The notes under the pieces: model-generated
What the model was told of the DNA's origin: nothing
What the model saw: the letters and a program-made list of their open reading frames with translations, nothing else
Databases searched by the model: none
Source of the DNA: a virus
Taxonomy: Duplodnaviria; Caudoviricetes
Direction: 5' to 3' (one strand)
IMG/VR virus record: IMGVR_UViG_3300031992_000012
Span: 96,001-160,000 of that record
Length of the DNA: 64,000 nt
Shown here: positions 15,802 through 64,000 of the stretch, piece after piece
Layout: each line of letters begins with the position of its first letter
Position numbering within the stretch: position 1 is the first letter of the stretch
Position numbers and translations under genes: made by a program

Positions 15802-17897
15802 AGAAGATAAGCCCCATGGCGGAAATGCGGATGGTTGACACAATCCGTGCCGCCCGAGAATCCAGTGGCCGGGGAACGAACCCCAGCGAGGCCGTGGCGA
15901 AACTCGCCATGGAGCAGAACATGTCCACCGAACAGGCGGCCCGCATCTGCGAGGCCTTCAACAAGCTCGCGTCCATAGACCACCTGTCCAGTGATCAAGG
16001 GGACAGGGCGGCCAACTTCCCGCTGGCCGACAGCTCGGCGGTGCGGAAGATTATGCGCGACTCGCTCAAGATCGCCAACGAGCCGTTCAAGTTCCGCCGT
16101 ACGATAAACGACGATTTGCCTTTGCCCAAGATGACGGACAAGCAGGCTATGGAAATGATCTACAAGCCGACCGAGGAAGAGCGGAAGATGCTCGACACGG
16201 CGACAGACCGCATGCAGTATCTCGCGGACTGGGAGAGGATGCAGAGCGGAGTCAAGGCCATGAAGGTCGCCTCGGAGGAGGCGCGTCTCGGCGAGCTGAT
16301 GTTCGGCGAGGCTTTTATCAAGTTCGGGAACAAGGTCGCGTCCATGGATGACAGGGCCGTCGACAACATGGCCCGCTACGCTGTCTACAACTATGGAAAG
16401 GACGGTGTGAATTTTCTAACGGCGTTGGAAAATTTGACAGGCCGTGAGATCGACAAGAGCAGCCGCCCCTGCATGAAGACAGGGAGCGACGCCGAGAACG
16501 AAGTCGACAGGCTCATGTTCATGGCGGACAACGCCAAGGCGCTCAAAGTGGCGGCCGACCTTGTGATCGACGGGAATAAAATACCTTTTGGGTACTCGAT
16601 GTCTATTTACGACCCGAACCTCAATCCAGCGCAAGTAAACCAGGCGTCGAGTGACCTTACAGCTAAAAGAAAGGCTCTACAGAACATAAACTCTAACTAC
16701 GCCTATCAGGTTAACGAGGATTTGGCAGAGAAGCTGGATCGTCCCGACCTTACCGGAGCCGGCTCCGAGGCTGTCAAACAGTGGAATAGCCGGCTGAATA
16801 CTGTTGGGAAGCTAAAGGACACGACGTTTAATGAATCGCAGCGTGACACCGTTGAGGACACTAAGAAGATTCAGAACGCCATAAGCAAGATCAGGGCTGA
16901 GTTTGAGAAAAACGAGCTTGGTACTGTCCAGGACACCCAGCACATCCGTAATGAGATGGGTCATACCCAGGCTCAGCACGACCAGGCCACACAGGCCACT
17001 CGGAACAGCACCGACGCAATCCGTGTCAGCCTTGATAACGCCAGGGCGTTGTTCGACCAGCGGCAACAGCCCGGAAAGCTGATTACGGAAGCTGACAGAA
17101 ACCAGGTCGAAGCGGCCAAGGCCCGTGACGCGGCGGCCGAGCAGAGGGCCATAGACAACGCCCGTGCTACCGGTCGTTTGAGCACCGTCGAGGACAACGC
17201 CCTTAGGACGGAGGAAACAAGAGAGCTGGAGGCAGAGCAGAAATACCAGCATGCCCAGGCCGTCAAGGACTACGAGAACGCCCTTGCCGGTCGAGGGGAT
17301 ACAGAAGCCAAGCGCATGCTGCGCCAGTATGAGCGCGCCGAGGCCGACCGTGCATGGATGGAGGAGGAACGCCTCCGCAAGTCACGCGTCGACAATTTCA
17401 ACAGGCTGAAGGAACAGGGCGACCGCACGTCCAAGGCCCTGCAGGAAATGGCGAACAACACGCTCGCCAACACCAAGAGCGTCCTCAGCGGCGCCGTCGG
17501 CATAATGCAGAAAGCCGACGCGATCCGTCAGGCCCTCACACCGGAACAGCGTTCGGGAAACGCGGCCGCGCGCCCGCTCTCCAACGCGGCCACCAAGTAT
17601 CTTGAGAATCTCCGCCTCCACGACGTCTTCGCAAAGACATACCTTTCCGACCCGTACCTGCACCAGTATTCGCCGTCGGAAGTTGCGGAAGCCTTCAATA
17701 TCGTCTATGAGGTCGCCCCCGAGCTTGTGCGCCACGGGAGCAACCCGCATATAATCGGCGCCCTTATCAGGAAGTACCTCGCCAACACCAACCAGCTTGA
17801 CCCGCTCGAAATCCGCGACCTCACCTCGACAGAGAAGGACCGTGTGGACACGATGCTCAAGCAGGAGCAGCTCGAGGCGATTAAGAGGGGCAAGTAA
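15798..17897 (+). CDS. Coiled-coil head-associated protein
   Basis: ATGA overlap at 15798; KLAS, KIAN, KVAS x2, KVAA motifs; helical Q/E/R-rich centre. Confidence 0.75.
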   Translation: MKKISPMAEMRMVDTIRAARESSGRGTNPSEAVAKLAMEQNMSTEQAARICEAFNKLASIDHLSSDQGDRAANFPLADSSAVRKIMRDSLKIANEPFKFRRTINDDLPLPKMTDKQAMEMIYKPTEEERKMLDTATDRMQYLADWERMQSGVKAMKVASEEARLGELMFGEAFIKFGNKVASMDDRAVDNMARYAVYNYGKDGVNFLTALENLTGREIDKSSRPCMKTGSDAENEVDRLMFMADNAKALKVAADLVIDGNKIPFGYSMSIYDPNLNPAQVNQASSDLTAKRKALQNINSNYAYQVNEDLAEKLDRPDLTGAGSEAVKQWNSRLNTVGKLKDTTFNESQRDTVEDTKKIQNAISKIRAEFEKNELGTVQDTQHIRNEMGHTQAQHDQATQATRNSTDAIRVSLDNARALFDQRQQPGKLITEADRNQVEAAKARDAAAEQRAIDNARATGRLSTVEDNALRTEETRELEAEQKYQHAQAVKDYENALAGRGDTEAKRMLRQYERAEADRAWMEEERLRKSRVDNFNRLKEQGDRTSKALQEMANNTLANTKSVLSGAVGIMQKADAIRQALTPEQRSGNAAARPLSNAATKYLENLRLHDVFAKTYLSDPYLHQYSPSEVAEAFNIVYEVAPELVRHGSNPHIIGALIRKYLANTNQLDPLEIRDLTSTEKDRVDTMLKQEQLEAIKRGK

Positions 17898-19309
17898 TGA
17901 ACAAGAACTACGCGTATAAATCCCTTCTGCCGGACGACAACAAGACCGAGCCCGCTGTCCTCATCGACAGCAAGGTCCTGCCGGACAAGCTCGCGTCCAA
18001 GTGCGCGTCCGACACGAAGGAGTTCATAAAGGGCATAAAGCCTGACAAGGACCACAGCTACGTCCACCTTATCAGCACAGGCGCCCTGGAGTGGTACGGC
18101 CCCAACAAGCGCGGCGACTCCTTCAACGAGGCCGGCGGCATCTACAAGCCGACCGAGCCTTACTGCAAGGAGGCGTCGGAAGTCGAGCTTGACGGCGGGC
18201 TTACCAAGTACCACAACCCGACCTTCCAGGCCAACGGCAAGGTCTACCGCGAGCACCACAGCATTGTCGAGGACGCGTCCAACAAGCCGCTCGGAGAAGT
18301 GGTGTTCGCCACATACAACCAGCCGATGCACCGTGGCGAGCTTGTTGTAAAGCTCTCCAACGAGGAATGGAAGGACGACCTTGAACGCCTGGCCAAGGGA
18401 AAGCCCTGCTATTACAGCATGGGCTGCCTGACACCGGACGATGTCTGCTCTGTCTGCGGAAAGAGGACAAACCCAAACGACACCAAGAACCGCTGCGAAC
18501 ACCTCAAGGACCATTTGCTCGAGTACACGGACAAGGGCGTCCAGGTGCATGCGATAACCGACCATCCAATCTTCTACGACATCAGCCGTGTCGCGCGTCC
18601 CGCCGACAAGATTGCGTTCTCGCTCGGCAAAGTCGCCTCCGACCGTGGCCCTCTTCCTGTAATCCCGGTAAGGATGGTGGATGGCTCAATGTCCCGCCGC
18701 GCCGACCGCCTCGACCTGATTATGAAAATCGCCGCCGAGGAGAAGACGATGACGGAGCAGGAGAAAGTCCCGGTAGAGGACGTCTCCGAGGAGGACAAGG
18801 AGACAATCAAGAAGCTGAAGGGAAAGGACGGCGGAAAGGTTCTCATCATCCTGCGGAAGCACAACACCATGCTACCCCCGCCCGCTTTCCTTGAACTGCT
18901 GGCAGGCGACGGCAACGTCCCGCATGACGCCCTTCCCTTGATCGGTGAACACCTTGATGGTATCTTTAACTCGTTGTTGAAGGACGGCTCCATCAACGGG
19001 TTTGTTGACGACGGGACGTATGACGGCGACGCAGACGACAGGGAAATAGAAGACATTGTCATGCCCCTTGTCAGACGCTACTCGTTCGATGACGTTCCCT
19101 TCCAGAAGAGAATAATAAGAATCACAATCTGCCCTGGCTCGAAGATAGCCTCCGACAGACGAATGATAGTTACCCCCGGGGCCGACGCGCTTGCCGCCAA
19201 GCTCGCCAGGGAGTATGCCCGTTATCAGTTGTCGTTCCTAACAGAGCATCCGGATCGCCGCACGATAAGGCAGGCCCTATCGGGCAACCACCCGTTCGTG
19301 ATGGCATGA
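17897..19309 (+). CDS. Putative prohead maturation protease
   Basis: NKRGDSF...H...LGEV...SMGC-x5-CSVCG...CEHL...DISRVARPAD-x2-A fits an HK97/assemblin-type Ser protease with a Zn-finger insert; lies upstream of scaffold and capsid. Confidence 0.75.
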   Translation: MNKNYAYKSLLPDDNKTEPAVLIDSKVLPDKLASKCASDTKEFIKGIKPDKDHSYVHLISTGALEWYGPNKRGDSFNEAGGIYKPTEPYCKEASEVELDGGLTKYHNPTFQANGKVYREHHSIVEDASNKPLGEVVFATYNQPMHRGELVVKLSNEEWKDDLERLAKGKPCYYSMGCLTPDDVCSVCGKRTNPNDTKNRCEHLKDHLLEYTDKGVQVHAITDHPIFYDISRVARPADKIAFSLGKVASDRGPLPVIPVRMVDGSMSRRADRLDLIMKIAAEEKTMTEQEKVPVEDVSEEDKETIKKLKGKDGGKVLIILRKHNTMLPPPAFLELLAGDGNVPHDALPLIGEHLDGIFNSLLKDGSINGFVDDGTYDGDADDREIEDIVMPLVRRYSFDDVPFQKRIIRITICPGSKIASDRRMIVTPGADALAAKLAREYARYQLSFLTEHPDRRTIRQALSGNHPFVMA

Positions 19310-19405
19310 TGCTGAGAAACGCCGCCCTGTCCGGCGGCCCGCGCCAGGCACGCCACGCGTCCTGGAAGGCTCGAAGACACGAGTCATGGACACATAGAAG
19401 AGATT

Positions 19406-20650
19406 ATGGCAAACAAGACTACTTATCAGGACGCGATGCAATTCGCCATGCAGTTCCTCCAGAACTACGGGGCTGACCCGAAGCTCGCCGAGGACCCCAA
19501 CCGCCCGGCGCTTGTCCCCGATGACATGAAGGAAGGCAAGCCACAGACCGACGAAGTCGACAAGGGCGACGGAAACAAGCAGGAACAGGGTGCCCCCGGC
19601 AAGGAAACAGCCGAGGACGTCGCCAAGATGGAACCCGACGGCGCCAGCGTCGAAGGTGATCGCAAGAACACCGGCGACAGCGCGGAAGGCATCATCAAGA
19701 ACCCGCCCACCGTCTCGACCTCGGAAGAGCCGAAAGACGACATCGACAAGATGGACAATGTCGACCCCGCCTTCAAGAAGGCGTACGCCAGCTACCTCAA
19801 GCTGTCGAACGGAGTCATTGGCCTGATTGACGACACGTTCAACGAAGCCGCTGAAAAGAACGCCTCCGACGACGCCGTCCTCGACGAAATCGTCCAGAGC
19901 GCAATCAACACCAAGGCCCAGCACATCGACTTTCTCGTCCATGAATTCGGCGTCTCGCCGAAGCAGGCGAACGACATGCTGAACCAGTTGGCCGACCAGG
20001 ACCCTACCGCCGTCCTCCCTCCCGAAGCCATCAGCGATGAAGAGGCCGAACAGGTCCTCGCAGACGCCGCTGCCGCCGACGCGGGCGCCCCTGCCCCCGA
20101 AGCCGCTCCTGAAGGCGGCGACGATGTCGACGCCGACATCCAGCAGTTCATTGAAGAGATGCAGGGTCAGGGCTACTCCGATGATGAAATCATGGCAGCC
20201 CTAGAACAGGCCGCCGACATCGTTGGGCAGGAAGAAGGCGGCGCCGCCGCCCCGGAAGGCGAAGTCGCGCCGGAAGCCGCGAAGGCCGCCTCGGACCCTA
20301 CTGAGCCGGGCGCCGCTGAAGTCGGTGGCCCGGGAGAAGCCGAAGCCGCTGCCGCCCCTGCCCCTGAAGCCGCTCCTGAAGGCGGCGACATGGGCAACGT
20401 CGAAGGCGAGCTGAGCGAAATCGTCTCGCAGCTCCAGGACGAAGGCTACAGCCAGGAGGATATCGCGCAGGCCCTCATGGAAGAACTCGACATTTCGCCT
20501 GACGAAATCGTCGACACCGTCATGCAGGACCTCCAGTCCAAAGGCTTCACCGAAGAGGAAGCCGGTGAGTTGCTCTCCAATCTCGGGGAGCTTGAACAGC
20601 AAGGTGTGACACCTGAGCAGTTCGCGCAGGTCATCGACCAGCTCCAGTAA
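19406..20650 (+). CDS. Acidic scaffold-like protein
   Basis: Very D/E/A-rich, internal duplication APAPEAAPEGGD; between protease and capsid. Confidence 0.6.
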   Translation: MANKTTYQDAMQFAMQFLQNYGADPKLAEDPNRPALVPDDMKEGKPQTDEVDKGDGNKQEQGAPGKETAEDVAKMEPDGASVEGDRKNTGDSAEGIIKNPPTVSTSEEPKDDIDKMDNVDPAFKKAYASYLKLSNGVIGLIDDTFNEAAEKNASDDAVLDEIVQSAINTKAQHIDFLVHEFGVSPKQANDMLNQLADQDPTAVLPPEAISDEEAEQVLADAAAADAGAPAPEAAPEGGDDVDADIQQFIEEMQGQGYSDDEIMAALEQAADIVGQEEGGAAAPEGEVAPEAAKAASDPTEPGAAEVGGPGEAEAAAAPAPEAAPEGGDMGNVEGELSEIVSQLQDEGYSQEDIAQALMEELDISPDEIVDTVMQDLQSKGFTEEEAGELLSNLGELEQQGVTPEQFAQVIDQLQ

Positions 20651-61569: not shown

Positions 61570-62133
61570 ATGAAGATTCTAGCAATGGACCCCGCCCTGC
61601 GGCACACCGGCATAGTCCTCTTCGAAGACGGAAACCCTGTCTATGCAGACGTCCTCACCACCAAGCCGAACAAGCAGAAGTGGATGACGGTCGCCGAAAA
61701 AGACCAGGGTGACATGTCAGACTGGGCAAGGACGATTCGCCGGATAATCAGGGAGAAGCAACCGGACATCATCTGCTGTGAGCAGAGTCTGGGTGGTGGC
61801 CAGAGCGCGAGCTCCGTCAAGGCTCTCGCTCTGGTCAACGGCGCGATGTATGCGATGTCGACGGAAGACGCGATGCCACCGTGGATTTTCACGAGAGTGC
61901 ACGATGCCAAGAAAGCCGTCACGGGGAAGACAACCGCTTCGAAAAACGAAATGATCGAAGGCGCTGTCAAGATGTTCCCCTCAATTCGCAAACGTCTCGT
62001 GTCGGTCAAATCGGCCGACGGATGGACAGGCGACGCAGAGCATATAGCCGATGCGTGCGCGTCCTATCTTGTCTGTGTGAACTCCCCCGCAGTCAGAGTA
62101 TTGCTGAATCCGAAAGGAAGATGCAAAGAATAA
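61570..62133 (+). CDS. RuvC-like Holliday junction resolvase
   Basis: KILAMDP-x4-TG, PDIICCE, KKAVTG-x3-ASK-x-EM, HIADA. Confidence 0.88.
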   Translation: MKILAMDPALRHTGIVLFEDGNPVYADVLTTKPNKQKWMTVAEKDQGDMSDWARTIRRIIREKQPDIICCEQSLGGGQSASSVKALALVNGAMYAMSTEDAMPPWIFTRVHDAKKAVTGKTTASKNEMIEGAVKMFPSIRKRLVSVKSADGWTGDAEHIADACASYLVCVNSPAVRVLLNPKGRCKE

Positions 62134-62645
62134 TTGGCTGCACTCATTTTGACGATGAGAACATGGCCTCTATCAGGGGGTTCGCCTCCGTGTCCGAAAT
62201 GGACAGCATGATGGAGGCCATGTGGAACTCGGCCGTATCTGAAGATGACTTGATCTACGTGCTTGGCGACTTTGCGGTACGTAGGCCGGCATACTGGAAT
62301 GAACGGCTGAAGGGAAGGAAAATCCTGATACTCGGAAACCATGACGGTTTCATGGCGAAGGAGGCGGGATTTATTTCGGTACAGGAAACACTGATGGTCA
62401 ACGTAAGGCTTCAACGCGACACCCAGGCATGCTTCCTGTCGCACTACCCGTTTCTAAGCTGGCCGGAGCGAGGGAACGGAAGTGTGCATCTGCATGCCCA
62501 CTGCCACGGAAGACAGCCCGCGTCGCTGCCCGGAATGCCGGGGCCTGCACGTTTGGACATGAGCGCCGAACTGTGGAGGTTCCAGCCTGTGCCACTCGAA
62601 CAAGCAATCAACAAAGCAAAAGAAAAGGAAGAAAAACATGGCTAA
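62121..62645 (+). CDS. Calcineurin-like metallophosphoesterase
   Basis: xTHF, WNSAV-x3-D-x2-YVLGDF, GNHD, SHYP, HLHAHCH. Confidence 0.85.
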   Translation: MQRIIGCTHFDDENMASIRGFASVSEMDSMMEAMWNSAVSEDDLIYVLGDFAVRRPAYWNERLKGRKILILGNHDGFMAKEAGFISVQETLMVNVRLQRDTQACFLSHYPFLSWPERGNGSVHLHAHCHGRQPASLPGMPGPARLDMSAELWRFQPVPLEQAINKAKEKEEKHG

Positions 62646-62877
62646 CAATATCACGATTTGTGTCCGCGTTAACAACGACGATGTGTACCTCACCTCCGGC
62701 GACGTCCACCACAGCTTCACCGCCGGCGAACTCCGCCGCGCCGCCGCCGCGTACGGCATCTCCATCAACGACGCCAAGCTGATTCGCAATGGCCAGACCA
62801 TCTCCGACGGCGAAATCGTCAACGACGGCGATGTCATCCGCACGCATTTCGGCAAGGGTGAGGACGGCCTCCGCTAA
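62638..62877 (+). CDS. Ubiquitin-like (beta-grasp) protein
   Basis: 79 aa; FTAGEL...IRNGQ...IVNDGDVIR...GEDG-LR; directly upstream of an E2-like gene. Confidence 0.65.
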   Translation: MANNITICVRVNNDDVYLTSGDVHHSFTAGELRRAAAAYGISINDAKLIRNGQTISDGEIVNDGDVIRTHFGKGEDGLR

Positions 62878-62900
62878 TCCGCTGGCCTGACTAATCCCAT

Positions 62901-62953
62901 CGGGCCGGTGCAGCAATATCCAAGCTGCACCGGCCCGTTTCCTTATTTTTTTA
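62901..62953 (+). terminator. Hairpin/terminator between Ubl and E2
   Basis: cgggccggtgcagc/gctgcaccggcccg (14 bp) followed by a T-rich run. Confidence 0.7.
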
Positions 62954-62972
62954 TTAGCAATCAGGAGAACCG

Positions 62973-63752
62973 ATGAACAAAGAGCTGGAACCAGAATTGC
63001 TTATCGTGGGGAACACCATTCACAAAGTGAGAAGAACCATTGAAGAATCCGCGTCGTTCGACGACCTGGTTGCGCAGGTTCGTGTCGAGCGCGGCGACAA
63101 CCTCACGATGACACCTCCTCTCCCCGCCGCCGACGGCGCCTGCCGAATCTACGCCGAGCGCGGCAAGTATCGCGGGATGCTCATACAGAACAACCCGTGC
63201 GTGCGCAAGATCAATTATCACGACATCACCGACGACAGGCAGCCCGAGAAGACCTTCGAGGTATCTCTGCCATGGGTATGGGTGATGTGCGTATTCCAGG
63301 AAACGAACAAGAACAAGTTCGAGTGGATCAACTGCTACTTGTGCGCGACCTACCAGAACATCGTACAGAACGACCTGTCCGAGCCTGTCTTCCGCGTCCC
63401 TCTCCCGAATCAATGGGGAGCGGGACAGGGAAAGATGTGCACGGGCAGCGCTTTCCGTGGCATGGACACGTCCATGGCCCTCACGGCTGGACGCTGGATT
63501 ACCTGTCTCTGGGACTCGACCTTCAACGGCGACCTGGAGCCAAGCGTCCCCTCATCCCTCAGCTCCGCCTGGCGCGCGCCCCGTGGCGATGTCCATCGAA
63601 CCGTCCGCATCATGTCCATGCTCCGCAAGTGGGAGGAGATGACCAAGGAGAACAAGGTCTGCTCCCTCAGCCGTGAATTCGGCCTTCAGGAATACGGATG
63701 CAACATCGGCGGATTCATACAGCACGCGTTCTCAGGTCGTGACCACCTGTAA
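62973..63752 (+). CDS. Prokaryotic E2 family D / PRTRC protein B-like
   Basis: VSLPWV...VFRVPLPN-x5-GKMCTG...WDSTFNGDL; conserved Cys. Confidence 0.75.
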   Translation: MNKELEPELLIVGNTIHKVRRTIEESASFDDLVAQVRVERGDNLTMTPPLPAADGACRIYAERGKYRGMLIQNNPCVRKINYHDITDDRQPEKTFEVSLPWVWVMCVFQETNKNKFEWINCYLCATYQNIVQNDLSEPVFRVPLPNQWGAGQGKMCTGSAFRGMDTSMALTAGRWITCLWDSTFNGDLEPSVPSSLSSAWRAPRGDVHRTVRIMSMLRKWEEMTKENKVCSLSREFGLQEYGCNIGGFIQHAFSGRDHL

Positions 63753-63761
63753 GGAGGAGTC

Positions 63762-64000
63762 ATGAACCAGGAATACGTGAAAATCGAAACCGAGAAGGAG
63801 CTAAAGCAGAGCTTCTTCGAAGCGTTCCAGCGTGCCCGCAGGACACCAGTACCAAACCACCCGTTTGTTGTGGTAGCCGAGATTTTCCGGCAGCGCAACA
63901 TTCCGACCGAATGGATGACAGACGGTCAGCTTATCCAGGACGACGTCAAACGTCTCCTGATGAGACTTGAGATGAACGGGCTTCCTGTGGCCACCTCATA
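63762..64000 (+). CDS. Hypothetical protein, truncated by the window end
   Basis: SD aaggagg; MNQEYVKIETEKELKQ... open to the end. Confidence 0.65.
   Translation, partial: MNQEYVKIETEKELKQSFFEAFQRARRTPVPNHPFVVVAEIFRQRNIPTEWMTDGQLIQDDVKRLLMRLEMNGLPVATS

Follow-up and report, generated by a model that had tools for sequence, protein, structure and literature searches.

A conjugation module for a ubiquitin-like protein (Ubl) probably begins in the phage DNA analysed here, a 64,000-nucleotide stretch (the window) that covers positions 96001-160000 of the 205,081-bp IMG/VR virus record IMGVR_UViG_3300031992_000012. We propose, with a probability of about 65%, that window positions 62638-63752 hold the first two genes of this phage-encoded module, which would comprise, in order, the Ubl gene, a hairpin, and the genes for an E2-like protein and then, at L002:4762-8508, a 109-residue protein, a JAB peptidase, and an E1, and that the module is a diverged relative, lacking ParB, of the ParB-Related, ThiF-Related Cassette (PRTRC; NCBIfam TIGR03734-TIGR03741). 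L002 denotes record bases 155001-175000, and a window coordinate is the L002 coordinate plus 59000; L003 and L004 are metagenome contigs, L005 is Bacillus phage Edson (PV796108.1), and L006-L026 include IMG/VR viral contigs. The cassette lies 1.3 kb from the window end, with two genes inside the window and the remainder just past it. The evidence consists of predicted folds, motifs, conserved residues, and gene order.

Two open reading frames (ORFs) had been singled out in an earlier note on this DNA, and both are present on the + strand, at 62638..62877 and 62973..63752. Neither is a chance frame, since relatives of both the Ubl and the E2-like protein exist and two metagenome contigs keep the gene order. 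The first ORF encodes a 79-residue protein, assigned as a Ubl precursor from an AlphaFold model, Foldseek, alignments, and codon bias. It has a good Shine-Dalgarno sequence and is present as a single copy in the genome. As the note had described, its codon bias is strong, the strongest of the neighbourhood, with a third-position G+C content (GC3) of 0.82 and an effective number of codons (Nc, a noisy measure for a gene this short) of 31, compared with 0.61-0.77 and 40-61 for 11 neighbours. The protein has no Pfam, PHROG, NCBIfam, or PADLOC match. One close relative is on record (90% identity), and homologues in L003 and L004, at 37 and 29% identity, retain the gene order. A model built on four sequences (pLDDT 84.4) has the order beta-beta-alpha-beta-beta-beta, with strands at residues 5-11, 14-20, 47-50, 53-55, and 66-70 and a helix at residues 29-39. 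The predicted structure is thus a beta-grasp, as the note had suggested, and the top matches in the PDB are all Ubls: Mth1743, the UBL domain of Dsk2, NEDD8, ubiquitin, and SUMO (E 1.4e-4 to 1e-3, probability 1.0, TM 0.5-0.6).

The protein ends in F-G-K-G-E-D-G-L-R, the GEDG-LR ending that the note had pointed out. Among the close relatives the corresponding ends are K-G-E-D-G|L-R in this phage and K-G-K-D-G|Q-A-C and K-G-G-G-G|R-R in L003 and L004, and in L008, a viral contig that is more distant, the tandem di-Ubl stops directly after A-G-S-K-G. In the joint alignment of six Ubl sequences, Gly74 and Gly77 are the sole invariant columns. Gly77 (62866-62868) falls in the same column as the final residue of the L008 di-Ubl and as the unit junctions of a poly-Ubl in phage Edson; a comparison of the Ubl profile with the Edson poly-Ubl gives no significant hhalign match, and that link consists of the C-terminal motif alignment only. 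Because relatives have a terminal or junction glycine at its position, Gly77 is the predicted mature C-terminus and Leu78-Arg79 would be a propeptide, in line with the earlier proposal that the L-R tail needs removal. Gly74 was considered as the mature C-terminus and rejected, because the residue that aligns with the terminal glycines is Gly77.

Between the Ubl and E2 genes lies an element resembling an intrinsic terminator (62901..62957, + strand), composed of a G+C-rich 14-bp stem (62901-62914 paired with 62924-62937), a 9-nt loop, and a T-rich tail. The 106-nt intergenic stretch that contains it (62870-62975) folds with -40.1 kcal/mol (z = -4.34), and none of 200 shuffled sequences folds as well, indicating that the strong hairpin reported after the 79-residue ORF is real. 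A scan for consensus terminators missed it because the loop exceeds 8 nt. Terminator-like hairpins with a U-tract also follow the Ubl genes of L003 and L004 (z -4.5 and -4.0), so the element is conserved in three close relatives including this phage. It is plausible that the hairpin gives an excess of Ubl over E2; taken together, the conserved hairpin and the codon bias point to production of much more modifier than enzymes, and a modifier in large excess would fit a stoichiometric tag.

The second gene (62973..63752, + strand) encodes a 259-residue E2-like protein, a putative cysteine carrier, with the motif P-L-P-N-Q-W-G-A-G-Q-G-K-M-C-T-G, in which L-P-N is encoded at 63402-63410 and Cys156 at 63438-63440. 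The Pfam model Prok-E2_D (PF14460) matches it with 22.2 bits (E 1.2e-4), below the gathering cut-off of 25 bits. An exhaustive search of 1.84 billion representatives yielded 37 E2-like relatives. When 34 sequences are aligned, P51, P100, N146, C156, G158, and D187 are invariant and Pro143 is nearly so, and a motif F-N-x-D-L is conserved further downstream. The spacing from N146 to C156 is 10 residues, as in the H-P-N...C of UBCs. Prok-E2_D matches 25 of the 34 relatives at E <= 0.01 (best 2.8e-9), and PRTRC_B matches 12 of them. These matches place the window protein as a probable diverged branch of the Prok-E2_D family. The earlier assignment to E2 family D therefore stands, on the matches of the relatives and the invariance of Cys156 and Asn146, with the window protein itself below threshold.

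The E2 model is confident (pLDDT 91, pTM 0.81). In Foldseek it has no PDB relative, and rows for UBC, UEV, RWD, Cap2, Bub, and Atg10 proteins appear as weak matches within the top 50. The fold is common to uncharacterised viral proteins (best E 5e-14). In about half of the viral loci, among L006-L020, the E2 domain forms the end of an 819-890-residue protein in which 600 N-terminal residues precede it (e.g. L012:5540-8194).

The note had also predicted JAB and E1 genes just beyond the window, and both are there: a gene for a 603-residue JAMM protein (L002:5105-6916, + strand) starts 105 bases past the window end and is followed by the gene for a ThiF-family E1. An exact JAMM motif, H-S-H-N-V-M-N-A-F-W-S-G-V-D (H-S-H-x7-S-x2-D), begins at residue 164 of the JAB protein and is kept in all 20 full-length homologues, and the upstream Glu103 is invariant. 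The protein matches PRTRC_A (E 8e-7, 28.8 bits; cut-off 101.8) and has no match to the Pfam Prok-JAB model. The N-terminus gives a weak match to DUF2016, and we equate this part with the 'JAB-N' domain described by Iyer et al. Residues ~235-400 form a low-complexity linker rich in Gly, Ser, Tyr, and Thr with an AT-hook-like R-G-R-P-R-K stretch, ahead of a 200-residue C-terminal domain with no fold assigned; the linker and the AT-hook-like stretch hint that the peptidase might be tethered to DNA.

The most likely start codon of the E1 gene (L002:6937-8508, + strand; 523 residues) is the ATG at L002:6937. The gene product matches Pfam ThiF (PF00899) with 50.2 bits, above the cut-off of 28.1, and matches most of the PRTRC_ThiF model (E 7.5e-9, 35.3 bits; cut-off 144.75). 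Across 13 sequences, the Edson protein among them, there is no variation at GxGGxG, D44, N50, R53-Q54, K65, D117-N118, and R122, nor at Cys188 (S-C-E-E, counted from the same ATG). We infer that Cys188 is the thioester site. PDB sequence searches with E1, the E2 profile, and JAB gave nothing useful.

To examine recurrence, we scanned with the E1 alignment and compared the loci by home-made profiles and all against all. The scan returned 21 IMG/VR viral contigs of 30-527 kb, on 19 of which the order is E2, JAB, E1. Together with Edson and this phage they make up 16 E1 lineages at 70% identity. Metagenomic relatives of E2 and E1 include contigs of 97-188 kb. E2-based scans of viral contigs, with the protein or with alignments, found nothing; two E2 relatives used as queries had no match in plasmids; and tblastn of the window E2, E1, the SbcC-like protein, and P0019 against cultured phages gave no match. 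The record of one E2-like relative, P0017, places it on a 156-kb contig from a metagenome-assembled genome of Candidatus Njordarchaeia, an Asgard archaeon.

Two cultured phages carry the cassette, with all of its genes annotated 'hypothetical protein' in both. Edson (234 kb) encodes five Prok_Ub units, two unrelated genes, a Prok-E2_D protein (40.1 bits), a JAB-like protein, and a ThiF protein. Its E2 matches the family profile with an hhalign probability of 98.9% (E 1.8e-17), its JAB matches in BLASTP (E 9e-10), and its E1 matches at E 1e-4. Vibrio phage D69 (OZ195729.1, 187 kb) has a JAB with 31% identity and an E2 and an E1 that match the profiles, in the order E2, JAB, E1 with the Ubl upstream; here too, two unrelated genes lie between Ubl and E2. 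The Ubl-like end of D69, G-T-K-G plus a five-residue tail, is carried on a 263-residue protein. Vibrio phages D181 (OZ196140.1) and D148 (OZ196545.1) were matched on the JAB protein only, and there, too, the genes are annotated 'hypothetical protein'. The 'polyubiquitin' of Edson (L005:3979-4878), likewise annotated as hypothetical, consists of five head-to-tail 57-residue Prok_Ub units, four of them nearly identical, each ending in A-G-T-K-G, with a 14-residue tail after the last unit.

Since Ubl, E2, JAB, and E1 are all found, all four parts of a conjugation pathway are present. Processing, thioesters, conjugation, and targets are what we infer from them, as follows. The Ubl would be made in excess as a precursor, as the codon bias and the attenuating hairpin suggest. 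The JAMM metalloprotease would cut off Leu78-Arg79 and expose Gly77, which the ThiF-type E1 would adenylate with ATP, probably loading the Ubl onto its invariant cysteine. The Ubl would then be handed on to Cys156 of the E2-like protein and joined to amino groups of phage or host proteins, an attachment that JAB perhaps reverses. The earlier claim that the phage runs its own conjugation system thus holds for the four parts, and conjugation of proteins itself is what their sequences would predict.

Several observations weigh against a conjugation module of this kind. The Ubl matches neither the Prok_Ub nor the PRTRC_C model. Where canonical E2s have a histidine, the phage E2-like protein has a leucine (L-P-N). 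The triad is not fully detected on two of the 21 contigs: in L023, E2 is not detected and the upstream flank is cut, and in L024, E2 is not detected and upstream of E1 there is only a loose JAMM-like motif. Neither an E3 nor a target was identified, and the literature searched yielded no biochemical data on PRTRC-type cassettes. Lastly, the best NCBIfam match of E1 is the sulfur-carrier adenylyltransferase ThiF (E 7e-10). This match would also suit a Ubl that acts as a sulfur carrier like ThiS or MoaD, being adenylated and thiocarboxylated and delivering sulfur into a cofactor, RNA, or DNA without tagging any protein; so would the closest PDB match of the Ubl, Mth1743, which we take to be a ThiS/MoaD-like protein. 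However, no rhodanese domain is detected in E1 and no cysteine desulfurase among the neighbouring genes scanned, the set always includes an E2-like protein whose cysteine is invariant, and tandem poly-Ubl precursors, a hallmark of modifiers that are conjugated, are encoded in relatives. We therefore regard a sulfur carrier as quite improbable.

The cassette could alternatively conjugate its Ubl as a weapon that the phage carries against competing phages or mobile elements, tagging structural proteins of the invader as Bil tags phage tail proteins. Phages often carry defence genes. However, a search with PADLOC 2.0.0 (2023 library, which may not include Bil models) gave no match for the Ubl, E2-like, 109-residue, JAB, and 298-residue proteins, and for E1, the sixth cassette protein, gave only weak matches to CBASS E1-E2 models (best E 2.8e-6) over the N-terminal Rossmann stretch (mostly residues ~12-110, at most ~150). 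In addition, the position of the module is fixed among replication and recombination genes in the 16 E1 lineages of large phages, which looks like a core phage function and not like a variable defence island. We consider a weapon unlikely. A role in DNA segregation or maintenance of the element, as loosely assumed for PRTRC from its ParB gene, would agree with the term 'partitioning cassette' in annotation-level remarks in the literature (PMC13366799) and with the AT-hook-like R-G-R-P-R-K stretch of the JAB protein. However, the 94%-complete genome has no ParB_N match, the record has neither end repeats nor signs of a plasmid-like lifestyle, and the same paper states that the function of PRTRC has not been studied; we give this role very little credence.

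The proposed conjugation module sits in a DNA-recombination and replication region of the genome. Upstream on the + strand are a gene for a RuvC-like Holliday-junction resolvase (61573..62133; Pfam RuvC, E 3.5e-5; phrog_159, E 3.2e-22), a position that is also filled in L003 and L004, and a gene for a calcineurin-like phosphoesterase (62112..62645; phrog_547, E 1.5e-36), for which 62112 is the start of the searched stretch and not a mapped start codon. The phosphoesterase stop and the Ubl start overlap by 8 nt, ATGGCTAA, read from the sequence. Five genes follow E2 on the same strand, encoding the 109-residue protein, the 603-residue JAB, the ThiF-family E1, a 298-residue protein, and a reverse transcriptase (RT). 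The wider neighbourhood also encodes an Mre11-like phosphoesterase, a GcvH-like protein, an SbcC/Rad50-like ATPase, a helicase, and a RecA/KaiC-like ATPase. Phosphoesterase homologues lie near the cassette in seven loci, and SbcC-like and phosphoesterase genes recur close to it in other lineages. That the targets of the cassette lie within DNA metabolism is a reasonable guess, nothing more.

The gene for the acidic 109-residue protein starts at 63762, and its first 79 codons (63762..64000, + strand) are in the window; the full gene (L002:4762-5091) ends 91 bases past the window. The protein has no family match in Pfam, PHROG, NCBIfam, and PADLOC searches. Contigs L003, L004, L008, and L025 have ORFs of 83-113 residues in the slot between E2 and JAB; the L003 and L004 ORFs both end in L-I. 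Between E1 and the RT gene, the 298-residue protein (L002:8509-9405, + strand) has a cysteine cluster, C-x2-C-x6-C-C-x5-C, no detectable relatives or fold, and no homologue in L008. The protein may bind metal as a partner of the cassette or of the RT, and an E3 or zinc-finger partner is a conceivable reading. ESM Atlas comparisons of this protein and of the C-terminal domain of JAB gave no informative match. A gene for a protein resembling glycine-cleavage H-protein (L002:11742-12155; lipoyl-carrier fold, Pfam GCV_H, E 1.4e-17) lies, oddly, between the Mre11-like and SbcC-like genes.

On 11 viral contigs, genes for shortened RNA polymerase beta' (~900 residues) and beta (~1000 residues) subunits lie just 3' of the cassette, at L013:13651-16359 and 16819-19869 and in the same layout in L006, L007, L009, L011, L012, L014-L017, and L020. 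The phage genes are very similar to the bacterial enzymes (E ~1e-100 and 1e-89 to solved structures). A second ThiF-like gene lies between the cassette and the polymerase genes in 10 of the 11 contigs, in L016 as seen by profile search only.

In this genome the cassette lies between an array of template-like RNAs and the gene for a retron-type RT (L002:9402-10760, + strand), which is ~4.4 kb past the window end. Counting this phage, three viral lineages that are only distantly related encode a retron-type RT within 1-6 kb of the cassette (the other two at L008:12278-13456 and L025:4289-5299). The homologues match at E 3e-25 in L008 and 5e-10 in L025 and L026, in the latter two with a different gene order, and the RT gene is downstream of E1 in two lineages and upstream of E2 in one. 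The other 13 of the 16 lineages have no RT gene within 10 kb of the cassette, and there is none within 5 kb on either side of the D69 JAB match or within 7 kb on either side of the Edson E2 match. The proximity in three of 16 lineages is suggestive only, and the RT is therefore not an obligate partner. That the Ubl module is functionally tied to the retron-type RT and the template-like RNA array, with tagging that could, in the course of infection, turn on or off the RT or a protein that binds the DNA it makes, strikes us as a long shot.

The phage nature of the record rests on the IMG/VR class, the CheckV estimate of 94% completeness, and PHROG matches. Searches of the 205-kb genome with Terminase_6N gave no match, and searches with Peptidase_S77 gave none in this genome or in any other genome searched.

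Recent work has established that the bacterial Ubl systems CBASS Cap2, Bil, and Bub are genuine conjugation machines with activity against phages. Their viral counterpart would be a full phage-owned set of Ubl, E2, JAB, and E1, which at least 16 large-phage lineages retain. Several details are open to testing, among them a precursor tail that JAB would remove and the conserved attenuator between the modifier and enzyme genes. Trypsin would cut after Lys73 and leave a G-E-D-G remnant of ~+358.1 Da (summed residue masses) on the targets. Two culturable relatives with the cassette, Vibrio phage D69 and Bacillus phage Edson, are at hand. Because a system of this kind was predicted in 2006 (PMC1779556) and has already been annotated in at least one prophage (PMC13366799), the present cassette is a good lead and not a first; what appears new is a strongly diverged phage form of the known PRTRC-type system.

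The earlier note had pointed to CBASS and Bil among known bacterial systems. We correct this: the nearest known system is PRTRC, which we equate with the operon type 6d that Iyer, Burroughs and Aravind described in 2006. Operons of type 6d combine a small Ubl and a separate E1 with an E2-like protein that lacks the classical histidine, a JAB extended by an additional N-terminal domain, and a small protein that evolves fast (PMC1779556). Both PRTRC and the phage cassette have a small Ubl whose C-terminal glycine is conserved, a His-less E2-like protein, a JAB bearing an additional N-terminal domain, a ThiF-type E1 that stands alone, and one more small, fast-evolving protein. Remote sequence similarity is found in three parts, to PRTRC_A, to PRTRC_ThiF, and, through the 12 E2 relatives, to PRTRC_B, which has no match to the window E2 itself. 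The phage cassette nevertheless appears to be a strongly diverged, ParB-less variant and not a member of PRTRC, because the curated PRTRC cut-offs are all missed, by a wide margin; the Ubl has no PRTRC_C match (TIGR03738 matches nothing in the whole genome at E <= 10); and no ParB is detected, with no match to ParB_N (PF02195) in the 205-kb record at E <= 1 and positive controls in 11 of 14 genomes. In addition, type 6d E2s have a conserved downstream histidine, whereas the phage E2 alignment has none and shows F-N-x-D-L instead. Unlike PRTRC, the phage JAB (603 residues) and E1 (523 residues) have long unmatched C-terminal extensions, and the carrier here is a large phage, whereas that of PRTRC is a plasmid or an integrative and conjugative element. 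A PRTRC cassette has been recorded in a Burkholderia gladioli prophage, its function never studied (2026, PMC13366799), and we found no paper in the literature searched on phage Ubl conjugation cassettes as such.

Bil, Bub, and CBASS Cap2/Cap3 are prokaryotic systems with E1, E2, Ubl, and JAB-type peptidase that carry out real conjugation (PMC11601603), and chains of Cap2 and BubCD are among the weak structural matches of the phage E2 model. However, Bil, Bub, and CBASS are cellular anti-phage or stress operons, whereas the present cassette is owned by a phage, and in contrast to Cap2 the phage E1 and E2 are separate proteins. Phages lambda and T1 encode TAPI, a beta-grasp Ubl with a conserved C-terminal glycine, beside TAPK, a JAB peptidase joined to NlpC/P60 (PMC1779556). 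The TAPI/TAPK pair has neither E1 nor E2 and lies in a tail module, whereas the present Ubl is accompanied by a full set for activation and transfer and lies among genes of DNA metabolism.

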